DNA of 63,990 nucleotides, filler included, from Rhizaria sp. SCN 62-66 (taxonomy: Eukaryota), in NCBI GenBank assembly GCA_001724265.1. It is 4 parts of 4 records of this genome, joined end to end, with 100 filler letters (N's around TTAATTAATTAA, not from the genome) between each part and the next. Parts side by side here need not be neighbours in the genome. Positions count along the whole stretch, not along the records: positions 41,702 to 56,757 come from MEDY01000497.1; 3 more parts are not named here. One strand, written 5' to 3'. Each line of letters opens with the position of its first letter. The stretch's first letter is position 1. A program made the translations under genes and the position numbers. The notes beneath the pieces are model-generated. The model did not search any database and was not told the DNA's origin. It saw only the letters and a list, made by a program, of their open reading frames with translations. Shown piece by piece: positions 2,559-63,990 of this stretch.

Positions 2559-3356
2559 TCACAGAGCATCCGCATCGAACTCGCTGGCATCGAACTCGCT
2601 GGTGTTTGCGCCGCTCGCTCTGCTTCCATCGTCCGGCGCGTTGTTGTGCCACTGCCCATCTGTAACGGTGCCGTCGGCCGCGGTCAGCGTGCCGCTGCCG
2701 TGACGCTTGTGCTCGTGCCATTTGCCGTCGTACACGGCACCGTCAGCGTAGCGCATGCGGCCGCGGCCGTGGCGCATGCGTTCGCTGTTGACCTCGCCCG
2801 TGTACTCGCCACCGTCGGTGAAGCGTAGCGTGGCGACGCCCACCGCGCTCCCGCTCTTGAACGTGCCTTCGAGCTCGCGGCGACTGAGCGAATCATCGGC
2901 AGGGAACGTGTACTTGCCCGCGCCGATGGGCAGCGCCAGACGGTTCTGTCCTTCATACACAGCGCCTCTGTCGTAGTGGATGATGACATAGCCCTCAAGC
3001 TTTGACTGAACCCACTCGCCCTCCATCACCGCGCCCGCGCGCGAGCTCGTGAGCTTGCCCCAGCCGTGGCGCAGGCCGTGGGCCCACTCGCCTTCATACA
3101 CATGTCCCGCCTTGTCGTCGCGCGACGTGCCGTGGACCCAACGCCGGCCCTCACGGAATGATCCTGTGTAGACCTCGTGCTGCGACACCGACTCGACCCC
3201 TTCGCCGTGATACTTTCCACCAAGCCAAGAGCCAGAGTAGAGTTCGAAGCCCTTGGAGTCGCGAAGCGTGCCCACGCCTTCTGGCTGCCCGTTTACCAAT
3301 GTTCCTGTGTAAAGGTGGCCAAGATTCTAGTGGTCCACAGCTTCAATGGATGCCAT
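2559..3356 (-). CDS. MORN-repeat protein (ATG 3356 requires reading through TAG 3327-3329, or that TAG is an intron acceptor)
   Basis: Repeated YxGxWxxGxxHGxG units (YSGSWLGGKYHGEG, YEGEWAHGLRHGWG, YDGKWHEHKRHGSG). TGA stop. The 5' end is uncertain. Confidence 0.85.
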
Positions 3357-20578: not shown

Positions 20579-20617
20579 ACACACGCACACACACACACAC
20601 ACACACGCACACACGCA
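20579..20617. repeat. Imperfect (CA)n microsatellite in the region between two convergent genes
   Basis: acacacgcacacacacacacacacacacgcacacacgca. Confidence 0.8.
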
Positions 20618-21080: not shown

Positions 21081-21918
21081 TCAAGCCGCACTCTCCTTCG
21101 CGTCCGTCTTAGCAGCATTGCCGTCGTCACTGTTGCCGTCGCCGTCGCCGTCGCTGTCACTGTCGGCCATGTTCAGCGCCCCCGCCCGCGCGCGCTCCTC
21201 GGCATCGCGCGCCTGCAGCTCCTCCGCTCGCGCGCGCTCGAGCGCTTGGGCCTCGGCGCGCGCCTCAAGCCGCAGCAGCCGCTCGTCGTCCTCGTCGCGG
21301 AAGCCGTAGTACTCGGCGTCGGCGACCTTGGCCAGCTCGCCGCGCTTGCGCCTCGGCGCCTCAGCCTCGCGCCGCTCGAAGAGCTCGCGCACGCCGGGTA
21401 GGTCCTTAGCGGCGCCGAAGTACAGGTAGCCCTCGGTGCCCAGCGCGCGCCGGCCGTCCTGGTCCACCACGCGCGCGGCGGCGCCCGCGGCGGCGTGGTC
21501 GGGCCCGCCGAGCGCGCGGATCTGCGCCTCCCAATGCGTCTTCTCGCGGAGGCGCTTGTTGATGGCGTCGTTGAGGTCGCGGATTCGGAACTCGCCCAGC
21601 CCGGCGTTCTGGATCGCAGCCACGTCGCGGGAGATCTCGCGGATCACCTGCCGCCGCCAGCGCTCGCACTCGTCCACGTCGGTGCACTCCGAGGCCAGGT
21701 GCGGGCGCCGCTGCGACGCCGCCGGGTTCGCCTTCTCCTCCTGGTTCTTCAGGAAGAGGTTCAGCAAGTCTGTAAGCGTACAAGGGGAATCGCACAATAT
21801 TGAGTCAAAACAGGAGTGGATTCGAAGTGAGCGGTGTTTTAGTGTCAGAGGATGGATATCATTGCGTGGTTTCGTTCGGTGGCGACGTACTGTTAGCCTT
21901 TTCTTGGTTACGGGCCAT
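21081..21918 (-). CDS. ISY1: Pre-mRNA splicing factor ISY1; exons 21918-21891 and 21769-21081
   Basis: MARNQEKAN start, GTACGT...TACAG intron, then RRPHLASEC...CERWRRQVIREIS...IQNAGLGEFRIRDLNDAINKRLREKTHWE..I..LGGP..GYLYFGAAKDLPGVRELF. TGA stop. Confidence 0.96.
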
Positions 21919-22672
21919 TGACCTTGCTGCGAGGTGCGAAGTTGGGTGGGCGCAACACGGGTGTACAGAAAGAAGAACGAGGAAATTACAAAATTGTTAA
22001 GTGATTAAGAAAATAAAAAGTGATATTAATACACAAGAGCGTCATGATGTGTTATAAAACCGTATTTGGAGAGCTGGGTATGAGTCCGAATGTTGTTGTC
22101 CGTTGAGGCAGAGGTAGACCAGCAGTGCTAGGAAAAGTCGAACAAAAAAGAGGATAGTTTGCGCGACAGGAATCGTCGAAGAAACGTGTTCAAAGAAATC
22201 CGAATAATATATCACGGTTTCAATTCGGTCATCTTTTTAGACAATATGACTTGGTCAGGTTCGAAAGTTACATGCGATATTCGATGGCCCACTTTGACTT
22301 CGGTTCTGCTGTGTGGCCGGCTGCATGTTGGATCTGTGGTCTAGGTTTCTTTTCATGTACCACACTTTAGGAAACGACGATGTATTAGTATGCTTGCCGT
22401 TGTACCGTATATGCGACTGTGTAGAATCCAGATATCGTGCCAAACGCTCTCCAGACCTCGTAAAATCATGTCTATATCTCGAAATTACTTTGTCCTATCA
22501 CGTACTCGAGTCTAGACCCACCTATCTCCGACGACATATATCTCACGTATACTAAAAGCGATTGAAACAAAACTTACAAATCAACAACCAAACTGTGTTA
22601 TGTATCTGTTTTCTATAGGTTTAGCTTTAACCGCGTTTGTTTACCTCTTCCGAGCCAGAACATCCTTGACCA

Positions 22673-23587
22673 ATGCTGTCGCAGCTGCGCTTCACCGCCC
22701 GCGGCGCCCACGTACTGCGCCCCACGCTGCGCCCGCTGCTCCCCTTCTCCTCGCCTCTGCTTACGGCCCCCGCGCGACGCTACTACCCTGCCGAGCTGGC
22801 TGACATTGGCGGCGACACCCGGCCCCGTCGCAGCTCCAACAGCAACAGCAGAGGCTACCACACTGTGGGCATGGGCCTCGACATGGCCGGCGACTATGGC
22901 CACAGCTACGGCCACGGCCACGGCGGCGACAGCGGCGGCGCGCCGAGGTGGCGCGCGACGACGATCCTGGCGGTGCGCAAGGCGGGCCGCGTGGTGGTCA
23001 TCGGCGACGGCCAGGTCTCGCTGGGTGCGAGCGTGGTCAAGCCCAACGCGCGCAAGGTGCGCCGCATCGGCGGCGGCGCCGTTGTCGTTGGCTTCGCGGG
23101 CGCCACGGCCGACGCGTTCACGCTACTGGAGCGGCTCGAGGCCAAGGTCGATGAGTTCCCCGGCCAGTTACTGCGCGCGGGCGTTGAGACGGCGAAGCTG
23201 TGGCGCACGGACAAGTACCTCAAGCACCTGGAGGCGATGCTCATCGCGGCCGACGAACACGTGTCGATCTGTCTCACGGGCAACGGCGACGTTATCGAGC
23301 CGCACGACGGGCTGCTTGCCATCGGCTCGGGCGGCAACTACGCGCTTGCCGCGGCGCGCGCGCTGGTGGACGTGCCGGGGCAGGACGCGCTGGCGATCGC
23401 GCGCAAGGCCATGGGCGTCGCGGCCGACATGTGCGTCTACACCAACCACAACTGGGTCATCGAGGAGATCGAGATCACGGCCAAGGCCCGGGGCGAGAGC
23501 GAGGAGGCCGCCAAGGAGGGCGACGTGCTGAGCAAGGGCGGCGCCGAGGGCGCTAGCAAGGACGGCGGCGCGGCCGAGAACAAGTGA
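22673..23587 (+). CDS. hslV: Mitochondrial ATP-dependent protease subunit HslV (ClpQ) with about 95-aa presequence
   Basis: Mature N-terminus TTILAVRK (Thr at 22958), [44 protein letters not shown]. Arg/Leu/Ser-rich N-terminal leader. TGA stop. Confidence 0.96.
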
Positions 23588-24080
23588 GCGCACAGTGAGG
23601 TGTTCAAGTTGCGATGATACGGGCCAGTCGTTTTAAGTAAGGCTCAGCGAGTGATAGTGGCAATGTTTAAGTCAAATACACAAGTATATCAATAGAGATG
23701 AAGTAGTGCAGTGTAGTTGTTAGTTACTCACAAAAAATAAGAACGTGCGCAGATATAGCTGCATGTGAAGTTGCTTTGTCACATAATATCCTTTATGTGG
23801 TGGGCTGTGATCAAAGCAAGGTGTTTGAAAATTGTTATTTTCAAGATCGCACAACTCATTGATATTTCCGTTAGGCAAGATTTCCGCCAAGTGTGACATT
23901 AAACACTGTGACTTGCACATGATCTCTTTATTATTCACTCTAACACTCACGTCAACACTCAATATCTCAATCCCCCAACAGTGGTAGCCAAGAAGGCAAT
24001 TTGGTCACGTTTCTCTGACACACCCATTGCCAAAAGCCGGAACCCCGCACTCACGCTCTCTGTGAGCCCACCACACGCCG

Positions 24081-25866: not shown

Positions 25867-25966
25867 NNNNNNNNNNNNNNNNNNNNNNNNNNNNNNNNNN
25901 NNNNNNNNNNTTAATTAATTAANNNNNNNNNNNNNNNNNNNNNNNNNNNNNNNNNNNNNNNNNNNN
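25867..25966. other. Artificial contig linker (N44-TTAATTAATTAA-N44)
   Basis: Identical 100-nt spacer with six-frame stops occurs three times in the window. Confidence 0.98.
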
Positions 25967-28204: not shown

Positions 28205-31200
28205 ATGTCCGAGTACCCCGCGTCCTTGCTCGGCGAGAGCGGCGAAGCTGCGGGTTACATTCCCATGCAGCTGGACCAGCGCGGTGCCACGTTCCTGGAG
28301 GCGTGCGGCATCCCTTACACAGGCATCCGCTACTGCCCCGACCGCGACACTTCAGACAAGACGACCGCGGCCGCGGCGGCTGCGTCGGGCCAGCCCGTGC
28401 CCAAGACGCGCGCCTTTGTCGAGCGCGCCAACGTGCAGTAGCACTACATCGTCAAGACTCTCGTGTTCTGCGACTCAAAGCAGACGCAGGCGTTCGTGGT
28501 GCTGATGCACGGCGACTGCCGCGTTGATATGAAGAGCCTCGGCAGGCAGATCGGCGTCCCCAAGATAGTCCAGGCGCCCATCGAGATGGCTCAGGAATGG
28601 TCCGGCTACATCATGGGCGGCACCTCGCCCTTCGGCCTTGCGCGCCCCATGCAGGTTCACATCGAGAAGTCCATCCTCGACCTTCCGCACAAGATCATCA
28701 TCAACGCCGGCCGCCACGACTCGTACTTGCTCATGGAGCCCAAGGACATAGCGCGCGCATTCACCACCGAAGCCGCCGTCGCCGCGGGTTTCCCCCAGAT
28801 CAAGGTCGTCCAGTGCGGTAAGGAGCGTCCCCCGCCCGCCCCCCTCGGCGGCGGCTCTGATGCCGCTGCCACGGCCGCTGCCGCTGCTGCAGCGGGCTCG
28901 CCCGCTGCTGACGCCACCGGCGCTGCGAGCCCCATCTCTCCGTCAACTGGCACGAAGCGTCTGGTGACCGGCCCTGCCCCCGCGCCCGTGGCGCCCTCTC
29001 TGGCCGCTCTTCAGGCCGCCGCGGCCTCAGCCGAGCTGCCCGCCTCCGCGACCACCGCGCAGCACATCGTCGACGCCCTCGACACCGCGCTCGCCGAGCT
29101 CGAGGTCCTCACTTCCATGTACCCGCAGAACAACGTCCACCCTGACGCCGCCAGCGCGAGTGCGAGTGCCAGTGCGGAGTTGGACCTGCGGGTGGAGCCG
29201 GCGACGCTCGTGGTGGACCTCACTGCGGCGCGCGCCAAGCTCGCTGCCGCTGCCAAGCGCAAGGAGCCCCTCCGCACACATAACCCCGCTGCGCTCGGTC
29301 TGCCCGCCTTCATCCTCACCGTGCGCGACACTGCGGCCGAAGGCACGGGCTTTGCGCTGGCGCTCACGGCCCCGGCCGGTTACCCGCTGCTGCCGCTGTC
29401 GGTGACGCCGTTTGTCCCCGGAGAGGCCACCGCGCGCCCCGGCCTGCGCGTGCTCGCCGCGGAACTCGACGCTGAGGCCGGCCGCTGCGCCGCGGCGCGC
29501 GCCGAGGCCGCTTACGCCGTTGTTGAGCTTGCTAAAACGAGCTTCGGCCCCACGGTCGCTAACTACAAGAACGGTGCGAGCGCTGCCGCAACCACGGCCG
29601 CCGCCGCCGCCGCCGCTGCCGCTGCGCCGGTAGTCGTGCTTCCCGGCCGCGGCGCATCCGCCGCTGCGGGCGCCGCCGTGGCCGCGGGCGCGATGCGTTC
29701 GACCGTGCGCGCGCCTGAGTCTGCCTCGACTGGCGACGGGCTGCTGCAACCGGGCCCGCTGACCAAGCCCACGGGCGAGCTGGCCGTGTTCAAGCCGACG
29801 CTGAGCACCGCCGCGGCCGCCGGCGAGGGCCCCTCGCAGTCGCAGCTAGTCGGCGCGGGCGTGCGTTGTCTCGCGACGAACCGCGCCACTGTGGCCGACG
29901 ACGACTCAGACTTCCGGTCGACGTATGTCCCATTGTTAGGCCGCCTCGTTGTGGGCGAGAAGGGCCGGCCGAAGGAAGTGGCGGAGCTGTCGTCACCCAT
30001 GACCGCGATTGCGCCCGGCGCCGCGATCCGGTGGCTGGGCAAGCCCAAGAGTCAGATCCGCCTCGGCTTCGTCGGGCTGCCCAATGTTGGCAAGAGCTCG
30101 CTGTTCAACCTCGTGTCGGGCATGCAGGTACGCGCTATCGAGAGCAACAATGACGGCCATGGCAACAACACGAGCAAGAGCAACGGTCGCATGGCCACTG
30201 ATGCTGTATCGACTGCGAAGGCTGCTGCTTCAAGCATCGGTGCTGCAATCAGCGGCGCTGTGACTGCCGCCGTGCTGCCGCTGCAACAATCGCAGCCGTT
30301 GTCCGTATCAACAGTCCTCGCCTCGCTCATGTATGTTGTCGCGTCATTGATGTCATGTAGTCTATTCCTTAACATGAACATATCACACACTGTTTGGTTT
30401 CATATTGTTTTTCATGTTTACCCACAACGTTAACAATCTCTCCTCTGCTCATGTTCTTTGCTTTCACAACATCTCGTGTTTAGGTCCTGGCGGAAAACTA
30501 CGCTTTCTGCACCATCGACCCCAACGAGGCGCGTGTGCCTGTCCGCGACGACCGCGTCGAGCGCGTTGCGCGCTGCTTCCGCACTGGCTCCAACGCCAAC
30601 TCTGGCAGCAGCAACAGCGGCAGCAGCGGCAACAGCAGTCACAACACCGCGGTTGGAACCGTGCACGACGCAGCCTCGTCCGCAGCCCACCAGCAGGCCC
30701 CGCCGAGTAACTGCACGTTCGCGTCCGTGGACGTCATTGACATCGCGGGGCTTGTCAAGGGCGCTTCGCTGGGCCGCGGCCTTGGCAACGCGTTCCTGCA
30801 CCACATTTCCACCGTGCACGTGATCTTCCAGGTTGTGCGCGCCTTCGATGACTTGGAGGTGGTGCATGTTGAGGGCGCGCTGGATCCTGTGCGCGACATC
30901 GAGATCATCACGGCCGAGCTCATTGCCAAAGACACCGAGGAGATGTGCAAGCGCATCGAGCGCGCGGCGGGCAAGTTGTACCGCTCCATGGTGCAGTCGC
31001 AGGGCAAGGAGCTGCGCCGCGAGTTGGCCATCCTGCTCAAGGCGTACGAGTGGCTCGTCGCGGGCCGCTGCCTGCGCCACTGCGCGTGGACCGAGCCCGA
31101 GCACGCGTACCTGTCGACGCTGCAGATGTGGACGTCGAAGCCGACGTGCTTCTTGGTCAACATGTCTGCGCGCGACTATGCCGACGCCGTCCAGCGCTCG

Positions 31201-32262
31201 GAGCAGTGCGCACGCGTGCAGGCCTGGGTGGACGCCAACTCGCCGGACTCGGCCGTGGTCCCTATCAGCGTCCGGTTCGAGCAGGCCGCGCTGCAGTGCC
31301 CGCCCGAGGCCAAGCGCGAGTTTGTGATTGACGTCGCCGAGCGTATGGCTGCCGTCGCCGCAGAGTCCGCGGCCGCGCGTGTCCGGGCTGAGGCTATCGC
31401 CGCTGAGCGCGCTGCGAGCAAGGACAAGAAGGACAAGAAAGATAAAGGCGACAAGAAGGACAAGAAGGAGGGCGGCAGCAGCAGCAGTCGCAGCGCCAGT
31501 CGCACCGGCAGCCGCAAGAGCTCCGACAAGGACAAGGACGCCGACAAGAGGGACAAGAAGGACAAGAAGGACTCCAAAGACAACAACAAGGGTCCTGAAG
31601 GCTCTTCTAGCAGCGCGAGCTCTGCGCAGTCCACCGACCCCGAGTGCGGCGGCGCGAGCGAGAGCGAGAACGGCATCCCCACGGCGGTGCCCGTCGTGCG
31701 CATGACTGAGGTCGTCGCCCTCGCGCGCGGCGAGCGCCCCACCGCGGCCGCAGACGCAACGGTGCAGAGCGCGTGGGCGCGCGCCGTGTGGTCTTGTGCG
31801 CTCGGTGCTGTGTGGCAAGAACGCACCGACAGCGGTGCCGCGGCGGCCGACCCGTCACACGCCGCCGCCGCGGGTGCGGTGGGCAACGCAGTGAGCGCGG
31901 ACTGCGAGCCAGCGCGCGGTCGCGTGGGGCTCCAACCGCGCGAGACGAGCGCGCTGCACTTGCTGATCCAGGCCGGGTACCGCGCGTGCGATATGGTGCG
32001 CGTGTACCTTATTGGGGAGGACTCGCACGTCAAGGCCGCGTTTGTGCGCCGCGGAACGCCCGCCGGACAGGTGTCGGGGCTGTTGCACCACGAAAACCCC
32101 GACCGGTGCACCGCAGTCCAGGTCTACCCGTGGGACGCGTTCGTCGCGCAAGGCTACGCGCTGGACGCGATGCGCAAAAATAACACGCGTCTAATCAAGA
32201 CCAAGGCATATGAGGTCCAGGAGGGCGACATTCTGAGCTTTACGCTGAAGCCCGCCGCGTAA
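28205..32262 (+). CDS. YbaK-type aminoacyl-tRNA deacylase + RWD + OLA1/YchF-like OBG-family NTPase fusion; exons 28205-30127 and 30484-32262; contains in-frame TAG at 28439-28441
   Basis: YbaK: KTLV, GYIMGGTSPFG, INAGR. RWD: ELEVLTSMYP...LTAPAGYP. YchF: GFVGLPNVGKSSLFN, AENYAFCTIDPN, DIAGLVKGASLGRGLGNAFLHHI, VVRAF, VHVEGALDPVRDIEII..EL, YEVQEGDIL. TAA stop. Confidence 0.88.
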
Positions 32263-41601: not shown

Positions 41602-41701
41602 NNNNNNNNNNNNNNNNNNNNNNNNNNNNNNNNNNNNNNNNNNNNTTAATTAATTAANNNNNNNNNNNNNNNNNNNNNNNNNNNNNNNNNNNNNNNNNNN
41701 N
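41602..41701. other. Artificial contig linker
   Basis: N44-TTAATTAATTAA-N44. Confidence 0.98.
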
Positions 41702-49101: not shown

Positions 49102-52100
49102 TTACAATAAATAGCGTTTGAGGTCCATCTCGACCTCGTCCTCTTCCTCCTCCCACTCGAAGTCAACATCCTCCAGCAGCGGATTCAGCTCACGAGCCAC
49201 CCACACTGCATCCACCAGCGCGTAGACCCACACGCCGTCCGCGGGCCCGCGCCGCGCCGTTTCTTCGGCCTCTGCCGCGGTCATTGTCTCCAGGGACTCA
49301 GTTGATGGCCGCGCGGGACTTAACCCGGCCGCCCAGGGCCGCGCGCGCACTTCCGCCCGCGCGGCCGCAGCAGCATCGCCGGGCCCCGCAAGCGCACATA
49401 GCTCACGCCACTCCTCCGCGGCGCGCGCCACGAGCGCGGGCGCGTGGAAACTCAGCCGCTCGAGCGCGGCACCCACCACAGTCTGCAGCCGGCGCGCGCC
49501 GATGTCGTCCTCTCCGTGGCCCTGGTTGTGCGCCGTCCCGCCGTGTGAGCGCGCCGCGGAGTGGTGCTGCGGGGATACAGAGAGCAGAGGTGCGGCGCCC
49601 AAGGCTTCGCGGGCGCGCGCGGCGTCGCGCTGGCGGCGCGCGTGCGAGAGCCGGCGCGGGCGGTACATCGGCGAGGTCCACGCGCGCCACGGGTCACTCT
49701 CCTCGCTGGACTGCGCCGCCGAAACGGCTGAGTCAGCAGAAGTCGTAGCAGTGGCAGTCGCATCGGTCCCGTTCGTAGCTGTGCAGTCGCTCTTGTTCGC
49801 TTGCGACGATGAAGACATAGATAGAGATGAGTCGGCTGTGGCTGCCCACGCGCCCTTAGCTGCGAGCGCGGTCTCCGCGGCGGCCTCATCCTCCTCCGCC
49901 GCCGCGTCAGCCGCGTCAGCCTCGGCCTCTGCCTCCGGATCGCGTCCGTTGAGCCCCACCGCGGCCTCCGCCAGCGCGCGCGCCGCGCCCGCAGTCGCCT
50001 CGAGCGCGATGCCCTCAGAGCGCAGCAGCGCCGCATGCTGCCGCAGCAGCGCGCGCTCGCCGGCGACCAACACGCGCGCCAGCGCGGCGGGGCCCAACGG
50101 GGACAGGTCCGCACGCAGCGGGAGACGGCCACGCAGTTCGGGCAACAGGTCCTCGGGCCGCGAAACGTGAAACGCGCCCGCGGCAACGAAGAGCACGTGC
50201 GTCGTGTCCACAGGGCCGGCCGAGGTCTTAACGGTTGTACCTTCCAGCAGGGTCAGAAGCTCCTTCTGAACGCCCTCACCTTTGGCCCCCAGCGCGCCCG
50301 CCCCGGTCACAATACTCCCGTCGCCGTTTGACACCGAGCCGGGTGCAGGCGCGTACTGCTGCTGTTGCTGCAACAAACGGCGGCGGCGACGCGCAGCAGC
50401 GGCGCGCACCGCCTCGCTCGCGCCCGCTGTATCTGCGTTAGTTCCAGCCTCCTTGGTGCGGCGCGAGAGCAGTGCACTCTTGCGGGCCCGCCGCGCCGCC
50501 GTGGCCGCCGCCGACGCCGACGCAACGGCGCCGCCGACGCCGCCCGCGCGCGCGGCGGAGCGCCCGGGGCGCGCGAGCTTATCGACCTCGTCGAGGAACA
50601 CCACGCCCGCGCTCGCGGCGGCGCGCGCGGCGACGGCGTCGAGCAGCGCGCGGGACAGGGGCGCGGGCGGCTGCGGATGCACCGCGGCCGCGGGTGCGAG
50701 CGCAGGCGCGGGCAGCGGGGCGGCGGCGGCGGCGGCGGCGTGCGGCGCGGCGACCGAGGCGGGGATGGCCCACCGGTGCGCGAGGGAGTGCCGCAGACGG
50801 GCCAGAGCGGCGGCGGCGGACACGCGGGAGCGCGGGCCGGGGGCGGCCGCCGCGGCGGCGACTGCCAGCGCTGCTGAAGGATCAAGCGGGGGCATGCCGG
50901 CGCCGTGACTGCCGCCGCTGATGCCGCTATGTGCAGTGCCGCCGATGCTGTTGTGGCTGCCGTGGTGCGAAGGCGCGACGCCGAGGCCGAGGGAAGCCAG
51001 AGAGGAGCGCAACAGCGGGGACGTCCCCGCGCCGCTCGCCCTGAATGAGCCGGGCGACGACGACGATAACATAGACGATGACGATGACGAAGAAAGCGAC
51101 GATTGCGACAAGGCAGATGACGATGACAGATTAGACAGCTCACTGAACGCAGTGCCCGCGATAGGCACCAGTGAAGAGGTCTCGCCGCGGTTGAAGGCGA
51201 CAGAGTCCGATCCAAGAGTGTACTGGCCAGACGCGGCGTGACTTTGAGTCAACGCGGCCTGACTTTGCGTCAGCAGACGGGCCTCGTAAGCGGGGTCAGC
51301 GTCATCGTCTTGGTAACCGCCGCCGCCGCCGCCACCGCCGCCACCGCCGCCGTGAACAGAGTCGTTGCCCCCGCCTAAGATGCCGCCCAACAGCGACGCG
51401 AGCGGCACCTGCATCGCCCCACCGCCCCCGCCGCGCCCGCCGCCGCCAAGGACGAGCGCGCCGCCCGGTGCGGCGGGGCCGGCGGTTGCAAGCGCGTGGG
51501 CCAGCCCCAGCGCGTCGGGCGGCGGCGGCGGCAGGGCGAGGTCGAGAGAGCACAGCAGCAGCGGCAGCGGCGCGGGCGCGGCCGGCAGTGCAAGGGTTAG
51601 CGAGGCCGTCGCGGCAGTGGCGGCGGCGAAGGCGGCGGCGGTCGCGGCCAACGAGGGCGCTCCGGGCAGCCACGCAGCGAGACTGGCGCCGTAGCCGCTC
51701 AACTCGTTATCCTAATCCTGATCGCGATCATCGCTGCGACTGGGCCGAGTGGTGGTGGGGACGCTCTCCGACGCAGACACGGGGGCGGCAGCATCTGCGT
51801 CCGCACTCTTGTTCGCAGCAACAGAGGCAGTGCCCGCGTTGATACTGTTGTCGGGCTCGATCGGGGCGACCTCGATGACAACAGAGCCGAAGATCGAGCC
51901 AGACAGCCCACTCACCCCGCCGCCGCCGCTGCTTTCACTGTCAACAGTGTGGTTCATAGACCCGGCAAGCGGGGAGTCACGCGCGCCAGGCAGCGCAGGC
52001 AACAAGTCCCAGCTCGATCCCATGGCAGTTGAAGCAGATGCTGCGTCCACAACGGTGGAGTTCGACGGCATCGCGGTGGTGTAGCCCACAGGAGAGCCCC

Positions 52101-54189
52101 TGCCGCCGCGGTGGTTGTTGCCTGGAACGACCGTGTAGGCCGCCACACGCTGTCCCCTCGCAGTACTGGCCGCAGACTCACTCTTCCCCTTGTTGGCCAG
52201 CGCACTCGCACTGACGTTCGGAGGTGCGGTCAGAGACGCGGGTTGATTCAGCGTCGGGGACTGAGCAAGCAGTGCGCGCCAGAGCGCAACACCGGCCACA
52301 AGCGGGGGCGCGGCGGCCACGGCAGCGCGCTGCGCAGCGAGCGCGGCTGCGGCGGCCACGGCGGCCACGCGAGCGGACTCGGCCGCGGCGGCAGCAGCAG
52401 CGGCGGCGGGCGAGAGCGACAGCGCAGGAGGCTGCACCGCCGTCACCGCAGTGTACGCAGCAGCGCCAGGCAGCGCGCTAGCGACAGCAAAGCTTGAGGA
52501 AGCAGCATTCGCAACGTTACTGCAACTGCCACTCTTGTTTTCAGTGTGAGAAGCCCAGAGATCAGTGAAAGGCAGGAGCATTTCGCCGAGTAATAAGCGC
52601 TCAACCTCGTCATCCCCCGCAACCCCATTGCCGCCCTCTGTCGCCGCCGCAGCTGCCGCACAAGAAGTGACCGTGAGTCCCGTAGGGAAGAAGTTAAGCC
52701 GCGTGTCCGGATGCGCCAGCAAAGCGCGTTCGTACGCAGCCCGCGCATGCGCCTCGTCGCCAGTCGCGCCAAAAGCAGCAGCACTTGAGTCACCCAAAGA
52801 CGAAGCACCGGCAGTCGTCGCGGCAGTGGGTAGGCCGAAGGACGCGGCCAGCGCTGCGGCGTCCGCAGCGGCGACAGCGCGCGCCGCAGCTTCATACCGC
52901 GCCACCGCGTCGCCAAGCGTCTCTGCGACAGCGGCACTGATCTCCACGGCGTCGTGCTCAACACTCTGCTGTGTTACGGTCGACTGCGCAGTGGCAACAG
53001 CGGAGGCAGTTTGCGCAGCGGAGATAGCGGCGATCGCGGCGTCGACGCGCGCGAGCGGTGTCTTGGCCGCAGCGGCCGCAGCAGCAGAGAGAAACGCCTC
53101 CGCGGCCGCTAGCGCCTCAGCCACCTGCGCTGAGGCCGCCGTGACCGCCCGCACGGATGCGACGGCGACGGCCATCTCAGCACCACGCCGTTCGGCGCAG
53201 GCAGCGCGGCGGCACACGCGCGCGGGGGCCGGCGCGGGCACCGTAGTAACACGGTTAAAGCTCGATGCAGCGGGAGAGCTGGAGTGGCCGGTGGCGGCGG
53301 CGAGCGCGGCGGGAGCAGCGGCGGCGGCGGGCTCCATGCTCGGCGGCCGCGCGGGGCCCTGCATGACAGCGCGCGGCAGCGGCAACAACACAGGCCCGGA
53401 CGCACCCACAGCGGACGCGCTCGCGGTCAACGGCGCGGCGCTGGGCGACTGAGCGGAGGAGCAAGTAGGGCAGCGACAGTTGCTCTGCGCGAGCGCACGG
53501 CGGCGCACCGCTGCTTGCGCGACGAGAGCGCGCGCGTCGTTCGCCAAGTCGTCGACGAGAGTGCTAAGGTCTGTGCCGACCATGCCGACCTCGGTGAACC
53601 GCGTGGCCTCGGCGGCGGCGAAGGGCGCGCGCGAGAGCGGCGGAATCCACCCAGGGTGCGACAGCGGCGCTGTGAGATATGGTGCAGTCGCTACGGAGAG
53701 CGCGCGGGCCGCGGCGGCCGCGGGGGCGCGCAGAGCGGCCGCGGTGGGCAGAGCGGGGGCCGCAGCAACAACGGCCGAGGCGGCGGCCTTGACCAGCGCG
53801 GTCTTGCCGCTGCCGGTGGGACCCGTGAGCAGGATTCCGGCCGCGGCGGCGGGCGCGGCGGCGCGGCGCAAAGCGGGGTCTGAGACGGCTAAGCGGCGCG
53901 CGCGGGCGCGGAGCGCGACGGCGAGAGCGCGCTTGGTCGCAGGGTGGCCAACAATAGTGCGCGACATGGCCTGCACCAGCGCGCGCGGCGAGGGCGTCGA
54001 TGACAGCGGTAGCGGCGCGGCGGAGAGCTCGAAAGACGGGCAAGACATCGACGGAGAGGCTGAGGATGCAGTCGGGAGCGCAGAGAGGCCGCGGTGCGAG
54101 GTCGTCGCCGTCACCGTCACCGTCAGCGCAGAACGCGCTGCGGCGGAGACGGCGCGCCTGCTGTGAAGGTGCGAGAGCGCGCGGAACAT
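49102..54189 (-). CDS. hslU: Mitochondrial HslU (ClpY) AAA+ ATPase, 1695 codons when read through in-frame TAG 51712-51714
   Basis: Before the TAG: presequence, PRALV..IVG..KRALAVALR, Walker A GPTGSGKT, EATRFTEVGMVG. After it: Walker B GVVFLDEVDK, GEGVQKELL.LLEG, HVLFVAAGAFH..PEDLLPELRGRLP, DIGARRL, C-terminal DLKRYLL. Both halves are in the same frame. TAA stop. Confidence 0.9.
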
Positions 54190-54492
54190 GGCCGGCGAAC
54201 GTTATTCAGAAAGAGGTTGGTCGGGGCTATGGGTTGGAGTCGAGGAGAGAAGCAGCGGTGAGGAAGATGAGTATAACATCACAGTCGATCCGTCGTTGGC
54301 AATTTCGATTCATAATATAACTAATCCACAAAACCTTATCAACTATACTTTAAAATCACTGCTATACACGAGCGTAGTATGTGATTCCATTCTGGTTCGT
54401 TTTGCTGACGAGCAGTATCGTGCCTTGCAACTCGTATCTGTGCTCATCCCACTTCCCTGCATTCGTCCCTGTCTTCCACACATTGTTTTCAG

Positions 54493-56757
54493 ATGAGTGT
54501 AGCGCACCATACGATTGGTCCGCTAGCCGCGCCCACCACGGCGCATGCCAGCGCGGTGCTGTCGGCGTCTTCGTCGTCCTCGCGCCTCCTGCCCTCGTCA
54601 CTGCTGCCTTCCTTGTCCTCACAGTCCCACAGCTCGCACTCGCACTCGCAGCTTCCGCTGAGCAGCGAGGCCGCTGCCGCCGCCGTGGTCGCCGCCGCTG
54701 ACGCCGAGAACATGCGTTTCCTGCAGGCGCTCACCTCCGACGACGACGCCTACCTGCGCTCTCTGATGCAGCTGGCCGACGCCGAACTGCACCAGCAGCC
54801 CGCAGTGCTGGCTGCCGCCGCCGCCGCCGCACAGGCGCGCGTCGAGGAGCACGCCGTGCGCAACTATCGCGTCTTCGTCGCTTCCTCCGACGCCGTCGCT
54901 GCCGCAGCCGCAGCCGCGGCTTCGCTCGCAGGCTCCTCCTCGGCCGCCGCCGCGCTCGCCGCCGCCGCCGCTGGCTCTGCGCGCGCCGCCACCGCCGCCT
55001 CGGCCGTCTGCCGCGCGCGCCGCACGCGCCTCGCCGCGCTCACAGCCGCGCGCGCGCGCGTTGAGGGCGTGTTTGCGGCGGCCTCCTGCGCCGCGCTGTG
55101 CGCAGACGCCGGGCTGCTCGCGGAAGCGTTGGCAACGCTTGCGGAGGCCGAGTCCGTCGCCGCGGCCGCTCGGTCACGGATCCGCAAGCGCCTTGCATCG
55201 CGCTCTAGCGGCAGCGGCAGCAACAACAGCGGTGCACTGGTGGAGCGCGAGAGCTACATCAATGAGAACAATAACGACGACAATGGCGATGACGACGACG
55301 ATGATGATGATGACGATGGTGATGACGGCGATGACGCCAGTGAGGGCGGGCGCGCTGAGGAGTCTGCGCTCGTCGCAGTTCTTGCCACCACAGTCGCCGG
55401 CTCGCGCGCGCGCATTACTCGCCAGCTGCTGCAAGCATTAGTCGACCCTCTGCCGACGCTCCTACTCGCACGCGCGCGTAAACACCAGTCATCGTCCGCC
55501 TCAGCCTCAGCTGCAGCTGCAGCCGCGGCCGCGGCCTCGTCGTCGTCGTCTTTCGCGCTCCCCACGTCTGCCAGCGGCGGCAGCGACGCCGGCGCTGCCG
55601 CGGACTCGAGCAGCGGCGGCAACGGCAACGACTCTGGTCGTGGCACTGAAAGCGCGCCTGCGACCGTGGCCGAGCTCCTCGCCACCTACGCCGCCGCCGT
55701 CGCCGCCGCCGCGGGCGCTGGCGCGGGCGCGGGCGCGGGCTCCGACGCTGCGGGCCCCGCCGCGGCCGCCGTGGCCGCCGCGGCCGCCAGCGCCGCCGCC
55801 GCGCCAGTCTCGGTCGCCCTGCTGCCCGCTGCGCCCGCTGCGGCCGCACAGCAGTCGCTACTGCTGACTCTCGCGCTCGCGCTGGGCCCCGGTGCCGCTA
55901 GCGCGGGCTCTTCCGCGCCAGCCGCTCTCGCCGCGGCCACGTCAGCTAACGGCAACGGCGGTGACGGTAACGCTTTGTGTGCGGCCGCCGCCGCCGAGGC
56001 CGCGCGGGTGCGCGCTGCACTGCCGCACCTGGCCCGTCTCCTCGCCGCCAGCAACGCCAACACCGGCGCTAGCGCTGTCACAGCTGCCGGCAACGCGCTC
56101 TTGTCGTCCGCCTTTGCGTCCACTGCGTCTGCTGCGTCTGCTGCGACTACCACGGCGACTGCGACCGCGAATCCAGAGGCTGCCGCGCGACTGCGTGCGC
56201 TGTACATTGACTCGCGCGCCGTTGCCGCAGGGCTCTACACCCGCGCCTTGCCGTTGCGCGCGCTGCTGCTGCGTCTAGCGCGCGTGCTCGCACTCGCGCC
56301 ACTGCCGGCACTGCAGCGGTCCGCTCCCGTCTCAGCTCCCGCCGGCTTACCTAGTAACGGCAATGAGGTGACGCCGCTCGACGCCGGTGAGCTGCTTACA
56401 GTCACCCCGCCGCGCCGCTTGCCCGCTGCGGCCGCACGCTTACTCTTAGCCGCTGCCGCCGAAGCCGCCGCCGCGAGCGTGGAGGCCGCTGTCGCCGCGC
56501 CCCGCGACGCTGCCTCGTCTGACAGCAACAACAATACCAACTACAGCAACGACGCAGACGCGGCGACCGCGGCCGCTTCCTCGGCGAATGCGACTGCGAC
56601 CGCTGATTGGTACCTCGCCGCCGCCCCCGCGCCCCCCGTGCAAGCAGCGGCTTCAGCCCTCGGCGCGAGTGCCCGGCGGCGGCGGCGGCGCGCGGCGCGG
56701 CGCGGCGGCCGGCTGGCGGGCGCGCCGGCGTCACTGCGCACGCTGGCCCGCGCCGCG
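54493..56757 (+). CDS. COG8/Dor1-like protein, 3' truncated, Ala-rich
   Basis: AYLRSLMQL...L.QQPAVL......VEEHAVRNYRVFV resembles the COG8 N-terminus; later RQLLQAL.DPLP and RLRALYIDSR. Open to the contig end. Confidence 0.65.
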
Positions 56758-56857
56758 NNNNNNNNNNNNNNNNNNNNNNNNNNNNNNNNNNNNNNNNNNN
56801 NTTAATTAATTAANNNNNNNNNNNNNNNNNNNNNNNNNNNNNNNNNNNNNNNNNNNN
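56758..56857. other. Artificial contig linker
   Basis: N44-TTAATTAATTAA-N44. Confidence 0.98.
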
Positions 56858-56981
56858 TGCAATCTGATCTGATTTTCGTCTGTATCTTCATCAATTCTTC
56901 TCTGATCTCTCTCGTTCTTTCTCTGATACTCTCCACTGCTCTTCCTCTTTGTAAAGGTCAGTGACCTGAAGAAATTTAATA

Positions 56982-57662
56982 TCAAGGACCAACCCTACGG
57001 CAAAAGTCTGTAAATCCTCCCGAGATAGGCGAGTCATATGTAATTCCTTCGCATCCACTGTTATTTACATCCACACACATAATCAAGAAAATGAGCAAAA
57101 GGTAATAGCGCACGTCAAGTCCGCGGCGGAATTTTTGATATAAAAAGTTAAGCAAATACTTCACTGTCCTTGATATCGTGTCAGGATGGCAGAAGAACAC
57201 AAATGGACCTTCCTGTATGTAGCGGTGAGGAAAAGACAAACGCCACAGGAGCATGCACAAAGCTGGGACGGCTCCAACCCGTCCGCCATTTGGTAGCCTG
57301 ATTCGCTCAGGAATTTCGAAAGCATGCACCAGCTGGGTGATGACATCAGCGGGAAAGCTTACGAGAACGCCAGTGTCAATAAAAATTGTTCGTGACTCAC
57401 AGTACTACGACACGACCATGATGGCGTCATGCGCGCAGGAAAAGCTGAGCTGAGCATACCGAAACAAAGACACCGCTCTTTCACCGATGGCTTGTATGGA
57501 AAACTCTCCAACGGGGCGTACAATATGCGGCCTAATGCGACCATCTTGACGTTGTGCTAGTAATAAAGCGGCAGCGGCGGCGATGAGCCGTTGTGCACGG
57601 ATGCGGCGCTGTTGACGTGCCTCATCGAGTTCCTCCAGCGCGCGATCGAAGCGCCGCTGCAT
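56982..57662 (-). mobile_element. PIF/Harbinger-like (DDE_Tnp_4-associated) transposase N-terminal fragment with intron 57459-57358; probably degenerate
   Basis: The spliced reading SLFRFPADVITQLVHAFEIP...G....ALCMLLWRLSFPHRY....F......ISR matches the FRF...ALC.LL.RL.YP.R HTH region of these transposases. No DDE core is visible before the contig end. Confidence 0.55.
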
Positions 57663-60600
57663 TCGCCTACTTCGCAAGAAACCTGTGTCAGGACCATTGC
57701 ATAATTATTAATAGTACCGTAAATGAGTGTGTCAAAATGATTTTGTCACGATCCTTGAGCGGCTGATGGAGTGGCGACTGGACCGCAGAAATATATTTTA
57801 CAGTTTTTTTTAGCAGAATCAAGCAGATCCTACAAATTTGGTTGAAATTGGGCTAAAAATCGACCGATATTTCGCAGGTCCTCTAACTTTACGTATATTT
57901 CATGGTTATTGGTGCCTATGAGGAGTCCAAAGGGCATTGGGAACGTGTTGGGTTGATTTGTCAAGGATCTGTTTCGCATCTGTAACGCATCTTGCGCGTC
58001 ATTGAGGAATGCGTAGCGGCATCTCGTCGATCCTTCAAGAATGCACATGATCTGTCAAGAGATCATCATGACGACGTCAAGATCTTCAAGATCGTCAAGG
58101 AGTGACTTCCCTTTTAGCCTTTATACCCTCGATCTTGGCCCTTGCCATTTCTCTAGTTTGTTCTTTTCTCCGATTGGATCGATTTAGTAGGCGAAGCCTT
58201 TCTATTGGTTCGATCTGATTCTTTCCTTTCCCTTGGCGTGGCGTTTTCCTTTGCGCCCGCTGATTTCTCTTTTCCCCGTCCGTGTCAATACAGGTTTTTG
58301 GTTCAGTGGACCTTTCCTGCGTCCCACATAAATTCGTTGCTGACTACCTCGGAGTCAACAGCGGGGCCAATAATGTTTTTCTCTGGCTATTCTTTCATTT
58401 TGTTGTGGCCATGGTGGAATTGCAATCAGTTTGAACGAATTTTTGGCCGCGGCGCGGCGCAAGTGTTTTCCCATTCGCTGCGCTCGCCAGTGGCGTCGGC
58501 CTAGCAATTTTACCCGTACGCACTTTTCGGGTAGCGCTTTTCATGGAGCAACCCTGTGGCAGTACGCGCTCGCAACGACGCACTTGCCTCGGCCAAGCAG
58601 GATCTGGCGCGCGCGTCGGCAGCGGTCTTCACGTCGGCGTCGCCCATGAACCTTGTGGCAGCGAAGGAGGGCGCAGCGTGCGTCCACGTTGTGCGATTGC
58701 AAGAATATGTTGTCCATTTTATTAGTCTGCGCTTGCGTCGGTCGCGCGCCCTCGAGCAAGGCAACGTACCCGCGGGAGTAGTTTGACTCTCCCCTGTGGA
58801 AGGCGGTCAAGAACCCAGCCGCCGTCGCGCAGCGCTGCACGCGGCATTTCGTAGAGCTATTTGCCGAGGTCACCGTCGTTGGCCTATTCGGCAACGTGCT
58901 TCTTGATAATCACATCCGCGCGACCTCCACGAGGCAGCAAGGGAGGCGCTCGCTCGACGCTTTACTCTCCTCGAGCTTAACGCGCTGCCGCGGGGCGTCT
59001 TTGACACGGCTTTCTGCCCCGACGAGTTAATGTGTCACTTTTATTGCAAAATTGGGGCTGCTGATGTTTGCCACTCGCTGCGCTGTGGCACGCTTCCCAT
59101 ATGTATGGCGGAATCTGTGGGTCGCTTATCCCCAAGGCCGACCGCGACCCGAGGCACAAATCGTCATGGCGCCTCTTTACGCTTCTCAACAGCAACCGCT
59201 TTTGTTTTTAATTGGGTTGCGAGGCATATATGGCAAACGCGCCCTCAACACGACCTCTGACCACGCCGCCGACGCTGCTCGCCACGTTCTGCTTCAAGAT
59301 CTTGACAGTGCCAAGACTTTTTACATTTTTTTTGAGGTATGGCTAGTTGCGCTACGCCCTATGTATAGTGGGTGAGTCTTTTATTGGGTTGTTGTGTTTT
59401 GTTTTTTGCGCATCTTGAGGTCGACGGCGGCATCTTGTGTGCGGTTCTGTCGTTCATGATTGGGGTGTCAGCGTTTCGGTATTGTGTCAGCATTGGCTTT
59501 CAATCCGGTCATCGTTTCATGTTGGGTGTGTCAGCATTACACAAGATGGTCTGTGATGGTCTGTGATTGCATCAGGTCTTGCATGATTTTACTCGTTTCT
59601 TTTGTACGGGCGGGCTTCTGCGGCCCCCTTCTGGTGCATAGCATCCAATGTATTGTTTTAAAACTTATTATAGGAAACGCGAATGACGTCAAAGAGTGGT
59701 TTCCTGGAATATTCTTGTTGATATTGATCCTTCTGTACAATTAGTCGACGACGTTTGACCAGGCCGCGTGTCTTTGGCTACTAAAGCGAAACACAAGACT
59801 GATAGCCCAATATATGTTTGAACCACGAATAAAAAGTGAGCTCATTTAAAAGTTGGGATCCAGAGAAATTTTGATTCTGCTGTGAACAGCCTTTTCTAAT
59901 CAATCAACGCAGCTATTCTTGGCGCGCCCCACAAAATTTGCGACTTTTCCCAGAGCAAATAATATCACTCGATCGGTCCATTTAGTGTCTAGGTATTGCG
60001 CAAATGCGAGCGCATTTGAAAGCTGGAAAAAGGAGTAATCCTCGTTTCGCCCTGATGGGTCTACTGAAATCGAACATCATTGTCTTTCCTGGGCGCGCTT
60101 CACAAATGTGGCGACTTTACTCGCGGCGAGCTTTTCAGTATTGCTGCTCAATATAATTCCTTGACCGAGACAAAGAACGAGCGCATTTAAAGGCCGGGCT
60201 GCCTGAGAAAAATCCACTCTGCCGCGACGGGTCGTATGCTCCGTGCGCATAGGAATCGGTACTTTTGCGAGCGCGCTTCTCAAATGGTGCGAGTCTGCAC
60301 AAAATGTTCATTCCATACTTGTCACACATATTTTTGTCTATGCGTAGGTGTGGCGCGAGCCAATGGTGCGCATGGGTTGTCAAGCAAAAAAGGCGCTGCT
60401 TTGAAACGTTGCTGTCGGAGCGGATCTGTCGTGAATCGGTCGAGCCATGTCCATCCACGGAGCATCGCAAATAAATAACCTCAGAGGACAAGTGAAATAG
60501 CTGAAAGTATCACAAACGGTCGCGCTTTGCTCTATACTTTGAGCGGTGTCAGCCGGCATCTCCATGGCATCGCATGATCGCCACGATCAGCGGGCAGACC

Positions 60601-61031
60601 GGCGGGCGGCAATGGCTCGTCGATCATCGCGCGCACAACATGCCCCACAAAACCGCGCTCAAGAATTAACCCGCTCGCCAAAGACTATGCGTTTAAATAG
60701 CAAAAGCTTGCGAGCGCGTCAGCCTCTCACGGCCGCAGCCGCCGGCGCGCCGCCCGGATCGGCGCACGAACCGACACGAGCCGGTGCTAATCCACAAGGC
60801 CGCTGCTTACCATAACCTTCTGAGCTCTCTGTAGAGAAATAGAAAAAAATGTTTTGAACTCGATGCCGCACGGCATCATGCCTCGCCTCACCCGTCAGTC
60901 AGCGCGAGTTGGCAGGGGGCGGGAAAATTGGCGGGTTGGGTCACATCGCATGCGTTTTTATTGAGGTCAATCGGACAACCTACGAGTGGCCGAGGACAAC
61001 CAATCATTGGCAATCAAACGGCAACCCCCTG

Positions 61032-61132
61032 GCGCCTGGCTTGGCAAAATGCGCATTTGCGCATATTCACAGCCCTGCCACAGCTACTATCAAAGTTGCG
61101 CCTGGCTTGGCAAACCGCGCATTTGCGCATAT
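61032..61132. repeat. Imperfect direct repeat, about 35 bp x 2
   Basis: gcgcctggcttggcaaaatgcgcatttgcgcatat at about 61032 and gcgcctggcttggcaaaccgcgcatttgcgcatat at about 61098. Confidence 0.75.
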
Positions 61133-61274
61133 GGAGGGGGGGGGTGTCCACCATGAAAATACCTTATAGGGGTGCAGAATGTCCTCTTTTAGCAGCGGGG
61201 TTGGGACCATTCTTCTGAAACTCTCATCCCACCAAACAACCGCCCTCCAGAAGCTATGGTATGTATTCTAAACA

Positions 61275-63112
61275 CTACATTTCGACAGGAAGACAAAGAA
61301 CAAACTGAACAGCATCTTGAAGAAATTTTGGAATCTTGGTGAGCGTTTTGTTATCATTTCGGAGATAACTTTGGGAAGTGAATGACCGATAAATATCCGG
61401 TGGTACGACAAAAACGATCTTGGGAGCACTGACATAGTTCTTAAATGGAGTGATATGCGCAGACTTCAAGGGATGATGCTGGGAAACCGTCATCTGGAGA
61501 AGATAGTCCGGCGGTATAATGGAATCAAAAGCAGCAAAGGTAGCGATTCTTGGACGATAATATACCGTGTTGCTCTTGAAGGATACGTGCGCGACGTCTT
61601 CAAAGTACTGTTGCTTGCGGGGAGGTAAAATAACTTCTTCCTCAGAGTCGGTGGAAAGATTGCGCATTCTAAAATTCCCTCCTGCACATAATCTCGAATG
61701 AGCATACTGTTCAAAGAGTTGGCCACGCAATCCTGCCAACCGCCCTTCGCCCACAGCACCGTTGATAAACGAGATTGTTTCTACTCGCTCGCTTGTCAGA
61801 AAAAGGTCGAGCATCATCTCCGCAACGTATTTGGACGCAAACTCCACATGGGTATCAACGTAGCCTTTTTCGACCTTAAGGTGAAGCAGCGTATGCGACA
61901 AGTCGTCCTGGCCGTTAATTTCTCCAATACTAGCCTTACAGGAAGATAGGTTGCAGCTACCAGCAGCTGCCCGGAGCTTTCCCTTAAGTGCCTCATCCGT
62001 GAAATCGAGAGCCATTTGCAACACCATGCGAGGGATGCCTCCCCACATGCCAAACAGCCTCATCACACGAGCGTAATCAAGCGACTGGTAGAGCACGGCC
62101 CAACACAGACGAATCTCATCAAATGACCAAACGGGCATACAGTACTTAAAGGTACCCGGTTGCTTCAGATACTCATGGTAGACATGCTTACGTGGCGAGG
62201 TCACGATGACCGTACGGGCTTCGAATTCGCCAACTGCGTGAGCGTCGGCAATGTGCCACGTCTTGGGGTCATTCAGTTCGGTTTCAAAATCAAAAGCGTT
62301 AACAGATCCTAAGAGGCACGAGCCATCCGGACGCAGAAGGTAGCGCTTCCCCAAAAATAATCCGGACTTGTGGCCAGGGTCGGGCGGTTCGTAGACAACT
62401 GTGCAACCAGAAAGTCGAGCGCGCCAGAGAAGATACACTACAAACAACGTTTTGCCAATGCCAGGATTGCCGGTGAGAACAAACCGCGGAGCGACCGAAC
62501 TATACGGCAGGACAGTCTCGGCGAACAAACCATATAAATCTACGTAGCACTGACGGATGTATAGAGTAGAACCCAGGCGGCGACGTCCTAGAAGCCAGGT
62601 GCCATTCTTCATTTCAAGGAAAGTGTTCTTGGGTACTACGGTTGCGACTTGTCGTTCATCATTCTCGGGAGAAGTCGAAGCGCTATCCAGATGAAACCAA
62701 AATTGTGCTAGGGCTGTGTCATCTGGAGCGGCAGTGGATGGTGGCGGCGAAGCCAAGATTGTCACCTGCAGCGGATTTGTTATGCTGGTTTTTGGAGAGC
62801 TTATTTCCTGACCATAAGCAACTTCGTCATCATCATCCGTTGCTCCAAATAGCTTGAGCTGCGGGCAGGAACAAAGTGGAGAAAGCGGCAGACAGTTAGC
62901 GAAACCAAGCAACGTCAGCAAAAAACGGTCAAAAGTGCGCGCGAAAGAATGCGTACGTGGATGTTGGTGGTGCCGGGCTTTTTGCCGTCGCCAAAACAGT
63001 TTTCGTTAATGAACCTGCGGACATGCGCCCAAGTTACGTTTGACGGAAAATCAGCGTTGTCAGGTGTGTCGTTCAGTGTCCAGTACACGCGAACTTGCTC
63101 CTCGGCGCTCAT
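61275..63112 (-). CDS. Crinkler/RHS-type protein: N-terminal header + P-loop NTPase + restriction-endonuclease-like domain; exons 63112-62957 and 62858-61275
   Basis: GTACGC...CGCAG intron gives ..NIH|LKLF...NPLQV header; LYIRQCY; Walker A LTGNPGIGKT; TSP; YCMPVWSFDEI; WGGIPR; RGQLFEQYAH; YYRP...FAAFDS...QMTVSQHHP; QFVL end. Apparent stop is TAG. Confidence 0.85.
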
Positions 63113-63990
63113 CGTCGGACGCGGGGCAAGGGAAAGCGAAAATGACGTTCCCGCCGCCGGTAATCGAGACGATAATTTTAGAGACGTTTTCTTTCTTCAC
63201 GTTCATCAGTGCATCGCAGATCGGTGACGACGAGTCAGTTGCATGCCCGAGTCGAAGTATGGCGTTCGCTTTTTCCACATGCACAACGGTTTGGCTTGAC
63301 GTTCCTTTCTTCGCGTTATGAGGCTTTTAGCAGCGGATCGGTGACTTCATCTACGCAGCGATCCAACTCGATGTCGCTGGTGTCAGCGTTACTCCAGCGC
63401 ACCGCTGGCAGCTAGCCCTGGGGCCCAGCCGCTAAACTGTCTCGCCACTCTTCGCGCTTTTGCGGTCTTCATGTGGTCGAAGATGCAAAGGCACGGTCTA
63501 CCGTTTGATGATGCGGCGGGTGGCGTTGCCTGGGGCCACTCGTGTTGGACTGAATTTAAATGATTTTCGCCAGCTTTTTGTCTCTGTGCACGGCCACGCG
63601 CGCAAGCAAAGGGGGCCCACGTTGGTGCCAGCGTGCGGAGTGTGTGGTCTGACGTTTCAGCAGGGCGGACATCATTGTTGAGTGTTCACGGTTTCATCGA
63701 TGGCTGGAAAGTGGTGAAAAGTGACTCCACAGAATGCGCACGCGAACGGTGCTCTACGCTGAGCGGCAGCGAGCCTTGGTGGAGAGGGTTCGGGAAGCGC
63801 ATTCCCTCTTTGGCGAGGAAAATGACTGTTACTATGGAAGCTCCCCGCTCGCTCGCACTAAGCGCGTCCAACATCATTCGCTGGACATTCTCGCCGCAAA
63901 GTACAAACAACTGCACGTATCTGCGAGCCAGTTAAGCAACATGCACCAGTATGATTCTCTTTTGCGTTAGTTTGTTCAATTAGATATTTT

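Follow-up and report, generated by a model that had tools for sequence, protein, structure and literature searches.

Reassignment of UAG alone, with UAA and UGA retained as stops, is known from few nuclear lineages, and in the reports cited here the new meaning is Leu or Gln, not Glu (PMC5304391, PMC11687900). Two such cases are the rhizarian exLh, in which UAG is described as Leu, and Iotanema spirale, in which it is described as Gln (PMC5304391). For exLh, the same report gives 384 UAG codons in 71 genes, with 56 UAA and 15 UGA as terminators. Phyllopharyngean ciliates are reported to read UAG as Leu or as Gln and to prefer UAA as a stop, and their suppressor transfer RNAs (tRNAs) have been identified (PMC11687900). 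Blastocrithidia nonstop translates UAR as Glu and UGA as Trp (PMC12153298), and in one ciliate UAA and UAG are reported to encode different amino acids (PMC10553269). Here we analyse a 63,990-base stretch of DNA from the assembly of Rhizaria sp. SCN 62-66 (GCA_001724265.1), hereafter the window, in which the gene for HslU, the AAA+ ATPase that partners HslV, contains a single in-frame TAG. This TAG is genuinely present in the DNA and in frame, does not look like part of an intron, and is accompanied by further in-frame TAGs in the window. We consider it probable, well short of certain, that the source organism reads TAG as a sense codon.

If UAG is translated as an amino acid, the HslU gene would yield one protein of 1,695 residues. 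UAA and UGA would stay terminators, and UAG would be a rare sense codon, used 3-4 times in about 14,200 codons. We infer decoding on the ribosome, which would work through a tRNA able to read UAG and a changed release factor. On the minus strand, positions 51732-51700 read GAT GAT CGC GAT CAG GAT TAG GAT AAC GAG TTG (D D R D Q D * D N E L), exactly as in the original prediction, and the TAG is the only one within the HslU frame. The prediction also described the site as a GAT-NNN repeat with a duplicated hexamer, and this part did not hold. Tandem Repeats Finder (minimum score 30) returned four arrays between 51500 and 51950, none of them overlapping 51700-51732, and the site is better called an Asp-rich patch.

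The TAG splits HslU into open reading frames (ORFs) of 825 codons (51712..54189, with an ATG start) and 866 codons (49102..51702) that share one frame; read through, the gene encodes 1,695 residues, and the TAG is its codon 826. This is the one in-frame stop in 1,695 codons; the two remaining frames of that strand contain 24 and 41, and mononucleotide shuffling (1,000 rounds) gave 27.4 in-frame stops on average and never fewer than 13. Thus, the open frame is not a product of chance. The ten best solved-structure chains for the query are all HslU (E-values 1e-45 to 7.5e-38), and ClpX chains begin only at 5e-14. Among NCBIfam models the best is TIGR00390 (hslU) at 189.6 bits, versus 74.7-101.3 bits for the ClpX models. 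This score is below the equivalog cut-off of 362.45 because the I domain is missing and inserts are present. As in bacterial and kinetoplastid HslU (7mhb, 1g3i, 1e94), Walker A and B, the block at 257-375 of solved HslU, the sensor-2 region and the tail all align, and an HslV with Thr1 is present. The alignment bears out the predicted layout, in which Walker A and the pore loop precede the TAG and Walker B, the sensor region and the tail follow it in one frame. GYVG is the HslU pore-loop motif; the solved chains carry it, whereas the window protein has GMVG, with Met in place of the aromatic Tyr.

The TAG lies inside a low-complexity insert of about 940 residues (roughly 240-1185) at the place of the I domain, which in bacterial HslU has roughly 130 residues; between query residues 240 and 1185 no I-domain residues of solved HslU could be aligned. 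Relative to solved HslU, the protein has three more inserts, with lengths of about 47, 84 and 145 residues. The N-terminus is presequence-like and rich in Arg, Ser, Thr and Ala, as judged by eye. An intact HslV gene is found on another contig of the same bin, and its Thr1 is residue 97, after an extension of 96 residues that also looks presequence-like by eye. The two N-termini would fit a mitochondrial location, and the HslU tail appears to be of the HslV-activating type, for which the partner HslV is available. The best explanation for the protein is a mitochondrial-type HslU with a very long disordered insert in place of the I domain. A scan of metagenomes found 13 related loci that are 39-56% identical in the conserved domains only, all of ordinary gene length and short spacing. 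Two protein searches, each over the 8,000 candidates sharing most words with the query, returned no relatives: one compared the 240-residue stretch around the TAG with proteins of 132-420 residues, and the other compared the C-terminal part with long proteins (932-2,967 residues); in both, low-complexity words probably swamped the candidates. The HslVU literature includes PMC2277460 and PMC4106860.

A second firm TAG is codon 79 of a gene with a YbaK (tRNA_edit) domain. Reading this TAG through raises the Pfam YbaK match from 65.5 to 72.6 bits and extends it from profile positions 20-122 to 3-122. A relative retrieved in an exhaustive search, P0010 (653 residues, 67% identical), aligns ungapped across the codon, and against 11 homologues the TAG takes up exactly one column, again without gaps. 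A codon that fills one column of an ungapped alignment cannot be intronic. The flanks are GC-rich coding sequence on both sides, and the site is not acceptor-like. In a public protein collection, both the HslU and the YbaK genes are represented by pieces with a boundary at the TAG; for YbaK these are P0012, which ends at the TAG and is found on six contigs from three sources, and P0011, which starts after it. As to the gene as a whole, positions 28205-32262 (plus strand) appear to encode a single-gene fusion of a YbaK editing domain, an RWD-like middle part and a YchF/OLA1 GTPase, the G domain of which is interrupted by the intron at 30128-30483. The same architecture is found in P0010, P0015 (1,395 residues) and P0027 (804 residues), and at the corresponding position P0010 seems to run on into an intron.

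Two more TAGs are probable in-frame codons. One is codon 10 of a MORN-repeat gene with a good ATG; were this TAG a stop, a start at the next Met would lose four MORN repeats. The other lies in P0004, near the cut 5′ end of the gene; the frame stays open past it, with no Met in the next 100 codons or so. The 17 coding stretches of the window hold three TAG, no TAA and no TGA in frame in 14,199 codons, the MORN TAG being just outside the stretch counted. Because stops set the limits of the coding stretches, this count is partly circular. Contigs 1-3 have 14 complete genes, of which seven end in TAA, seven in TGA and none in TAG; this tally leaves out one ORF with GC-rich sequence and an overlapping ORF after its TAA, as the two may be one gene. 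TAA, TGA or frameshift lesions were found in none of the gene frames of the window, and two to four of the approximately 17 genes have a mid-gene TAG with no other lesion. A codon-model scan for stops with coding flanks gave the HslU and YbaK sites as its two best TAGs; we set the scan aside as unspecific, as the antisense of GC-rich genes also scores as coding. Two other candidates were rejected. The TAG at 27069 in a mitochondrial carrier gene belongs to an intron donor (AT|GTAGGT), and an ORF at 19832-21109 that ends in TAG is non-coding junk.

The TAG in HslU could in principle be an error of sequencing or assembly, or could be changed by RNA editing. Contig depth is low (about 5-8), and contigs rather than raw reads were compared. 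The contigs of two DNA runs (X2 and X3) span 51425-52185 with no differences, TAG included, although the figures for X2 and X3 are identical and they may be one data set; in none of four runs were other letters found at 51712-51714. A cluster of N-terminal HslU fragments (three members, with five contig records in Logan and ENA) ends in ...DDRDQD in all three members. With the TAG in the X2 and X3 contigs and in the five records, an assembly slip is unlikely, even if all the records that carry it may stem from related samples. The recurrence of the YbaK TAG on six contigs likewise argues against an error, and we know of no type of nuclear editing that converts UAG to a Glu or Gln codon. We regard error or editing as hardly credible. 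A spliceosomal intron with a length that is a multiple of three would also remove the TAG, and the original prediction would have fallen with it. The organism does have GT..AG introns, and the TAG at 27069 was truly part of one. Upstream of the HslU TAG there is a sole good donor, GTGAGT at 51915-51910, from which 51915-51712 would make an in-frame intron of 204 nucleotides with the TAG as its acceptor. The acceptor looks wrong, however: its pyrimidine fraction is 0.49 versus 0.68-0.78 in four confirmed introns, the GC content of the 100 nucleotides upstream is 0.66 versus 0.33-0.49, and there is no low-GC stretch near the TAG within the HslU gene. In the poly(A) RNA run X5, one contig spans 51757-52012 with no joint and thus passes through this donor unspliced. 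Among the 15 joints listed of 139, none has the ends of a minus-strand intron; their sides are 20-23 letters long and mostly present in the DNA runs too, a pattern that low-complexity artefacts would give. At the YbaK site, the single ungapped column rules an intron out. In sum, the HslU TAG is not intron-like, and we consider an intron there very unlikely.

A recent nonsense mutation would make the HslU copy a pseudogene or a truncated allele, perhaps beside a second HslU paralogue, and eukaryotes with HslVU have been reported to carry both HslU1 and HslU2 (PMC4106860). Either CAG or GAG gives TAG in one step, and the TAG is within an insert that looks dispensable. CAG>TAG is a classic nonsense change. 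Against this, every motif is intact and no second lesion occurs in 1,695 codons. A like TAG is found in a second conserved gene, and probably in two more of about 17, with no lesion of any other kind, and contigs from RNA runs lie on both HslU halves (49234-50165, 51757-52012 and 53402-53687), so that the part downstream of the TAG is covered too. We therefore think a nonsense mutation quite improbable. Leaky or programmed readthrough under the standard code is another possibility, with TAG still a terminator and near-cognate tRNAs suppressing a few internal TAGs; the organism would then be at an ambiguous or early intermediate stage and would not have a fixed reassignment. The extreme rarity of in-frame UAG (3 in 14,199 codons) and the one gene on contig 4 that ends at TAG would fit. 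In contrast, the TAGs are placed in mid-protein (codon 826 of 1,695 in HslU and codon 79 in YbaK), where readthrough at a low level would waste most of the product. Terminators offer no TAG among 14, and the sequences after the four TAGs (TAG GAT AAC, TAG CAC TAC, TAG GCT AAG and TAG AAT CTT) have no motif in common. Readthrough is, in our view, unlikely.

Translation of UAG as a sense codon has several observations to contend with. The sample is small (64 kilobases, kb, with four TAGs, of which two are firm and two probable), and UAG is much rarer than in the lineages described with UAG as sense. No tRNA or other Rfam match was found in the window, so that no suppressor tRNA is among its genes, and eRF1 was not seen there either. 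If TAG is assumed to end 20-30% of genes, its absence from 14 terminators has a probability of about 0.04 to 0.007, which is no more than suggestive. On contig 4, the standard code would end P0003 at a TAG; with the TAG read, it would continue for 17 more codons to a TGA. In the GC3-rich genes of the window (GC3 is GC content at third codon positions), 66% of one-step nonsense paths lead to TAG, and the finding of TAG lesions only does not by itself exclude nonsense mutations. None of the RNA contigs listed crosses the HslU TAG, the nearest ending 43 nucleotides short, and the RNA run, compared with contig 3, may contain DNA.

Given that UAG is a sense codon, the question is which amino acid it specifies. 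The original prediction took the HslU site as pointing to Gln and as the best single clue, with GATCAG and GATTAG as a duplicated hexamer. The HslU site is silent on the amino acid because the insert is unconserved, and the hexamer argument does not support Gln, since GAG>TAG, or CAG>TAG as a nonsense mutation, would explain the pattern just as well. The YbaK TAG is directly before an invariant His, and its column reads E in eight, Q in two and A in one of the 11 aligned homologues, with Glu in the nearest relative, P0010. Among 72 homologues that bear the motif, the column has E in 54, L in five, R in four, Q in two, P in two and A, Y, V, H and D in one each; these are the 72 kept of the 150 best YbaK matches, the other 78 lacking the motif as fragments or divergent sequences. 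Counting against Glu, the distant solved YbaK homologues are variable at this column (P, V, E, P), two homologues carry Q, and the assignment is that of one column. The acidic context at HslU (D-Q-D-x-D-N-E) leans weakly to Glu, as do the D-x-D contexts in window proteins, in which x is E 11 times and Q three times. We would thus put Glu slightly above even, judging by the alignments. Gln, as in a code of the NCBI table 15 type, appears disfavoured at one conserved YbaK site and at that site only, and would be a clearly smaller possibility of perhaps a quarter or a little more, and the rest would fall to other amino acids. Of the predicted Gln codon, then, the translated codon is probably right, on the frame, the lack of intron features, the YbaK TAG and the 14 terminators without TAG, and Gln itself is what the YbaK column speaks against.

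The window resembles exLh and Iotanema spirale in having in-frame UAG in conserved genes and, among the 14 complete genes of contigs 1-3, only UAA and UGA at gene ends (seven of each). It differs in that its genome is very GC-rich (exon GC3 0.75-0.9), in that its one informative site suggests Glu rather than Leu (exLh) or Gln (Iotanema spirale), and in the rarity of UAG, of which 3-4 occur in about 14,200 codons compared with the abundance reported for exLh (384 in 71 genes; PMC5304391). The phyllopharyngean ciliates are similar in that UAG alone is reassigned, and their cases were likewise mined from metagenomic and public assemblies, as that report describes (PMC11687900). UAG as Glu, if the YbaK site is a guide, would be shared by the window with the Blastocrithidia, ciliate and peritrich codes, yet Glu as the meaning of UAG is known only alongside a reassigned UAA, as in these codes, and here UAA ends seven of 14 genes and is never in frame. 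The peritrich code has UAG as Glu together with a reassigned UAA, and in the ciliate with differing meanings of UAA and UAG the latter is reportedly Glu. Macronuclear DNA of ciliates is unlike the long GC-rich genes, the AT-rich introns of 130-360 nucleotides and the huge Ala-rich inserts of the window.

A search of the literature, supplementary files aside, found no non-ciliate with UAG as Glu and UAA and UGA as stops. At the minimum, the case adds a lineage to a kind of change already known, and it becomes a new code variant if Glu holds; UAG as Glu with UAA and UGA as stops would be such a variant, on one site and 64 kb. That an uncultured, GC-rich, intron-bearing eukaryote of wastewater bioreactors has this undescribed code, with UAG still very rare, is a tentative proposal that we hold to be somewhat less than an even chance. 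If true, early or mutation-limited codon capture could usefully be viewed in a GC-rich lineage that has UAG as a very rare sense codon. There is also a practical side. Gene callers split proteins at TAG, and any annotation of this proteome made under the standard code or table 11 will thus contain errors.

Table 1. Features of the window, with positions along the 63,990-base stretch.
Feature	Position	Strand	Detail or basis
HslU-type AAA+ ATPase gene	49102..54189	-	1,695 codons + TAA; structure match E=1e-45, TIGR00390, frame statistics
Walker A, GPTGSGKT	53800..53823, residues 123-130	-	alignment to solved HslU
Pore-loop region, TEVGMVGTD	53569..53595, residues 199-207	-	aligned to TEVGYVG of solved HslU
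In-frame TAG, HslU codon 826	51712..51714	-	context D-D-R-D-Q-D-[TAG]-D-N-E-L
Walker B, VVFLDEVDK	50578..50604, residues 1196-1204	-	alignment to solved HslU
Conserved HslU block, GVQKELLTLLEGT ... ELRGRLPLR	49945..50301, residues 1297-1415	-	solved HslU 257-375, 106.9 bits
Sensor-2 region, IGARRLQTV	49477..49503, residues 1563-1571	-	alignment to solved HslU
C-terminal tail, DLKRYLL	49105..49125, residues 1689-1695	-	then TAA + AT-rich sequence
HslV partner gene, intact	22670..23584	+	solved HslV E=2.4e-56; NF003964 252 bits, above cut-off 137; other contig, same bin
In-frame TAG, codon 79 of YbaK (tRNA_edit) domain gene	28439..28441	+	Pfam, relative alignment
Probable in-frame TAG, codon 10 of MORN-repeat gene	3327..3329	-	good ATG at 3356
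Probable in-frame TAG, P0004	41749..41751	+	near cut 5′ end, frame open across
Intron in YchF	30128-30483	+	conserved-protein comparison
Intron in zuotin	38587-38456	-	conserved-protein comparison
Two introns in mitochondrial carrier gene			GT..AG; conserved-protein comparison

The window consists of four contigs, joined at 25867-25966, 41602-41701 and 56758-56857, where each join is 44 N, TTAATTAATTAA and another 44 N. The ORFs at 24066-25919 and 54409-56802 have apparent TAA ends at these spacers and are truly cut by the contig ends. The runs that hold the HslU stretch are metagenomes of bioreactors, wastewater and activated sludge, and the window is thus a piece of a binned metagenomic genome. 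The source is a eukaryote, on the basis of exon GC3 (about 0.75-0.9), AT-rich introns and intergenic regions, and the GT..AG introns, four of which could be read directly against conserved proteins. Long inserts rich in Ala, Ser and Gly are common in the proteins of the window.

The P0004 gene (41704-42666, plus strand) has a GC3 of 0.52, much under that of its neighbours, and no poly(A) RNA cover. It belongs to a multi-copy family with 19 relatives in the collection (38-100% identity), one of them with a protein kinase domain. The core of the family is conserved and rich in Cys, His and Pro; the TAG is in the variable N-terminal region, and the 19 relatives are uninformative on the amino acid.

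An ORF with a HEAT repeat (1,722 codons, minus strand) ends in a TAA at 10384-10382 that is followed by GC-rich sequence (0.83; region 10340-10430). A neighbouring ORF of 2,142 codons overlaps it in a different frame; both may belong to a single gene of about 3,800 codons that contains a frameshift or a short intron. The Isy1 ORF (21084-22004, minus strand) has its first Met only at codon 279, and its Pfam match begins at profile position 12; the first exon must therefore lie upstream, behind an intron. Contig 4 (56858-63990) has a lower GC content of about 0.40-0.61 and may be repeat-rich or mis-binned. Its P0003 gene (61278-63005, minus strand) is a Crinkler/RHS-like P-loop gene, an ORF that has no start Met and ends at TAG, and an Atlas search with P0003 matched Crinkler/RHS-like clusters from several phyla, a spread that points to no one lineage. 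The same contig has a fragment (56982-57704, minus strand) that contains one in-frame TAG and by eye resembles the N-terminal part of Harbinger-type transposases.

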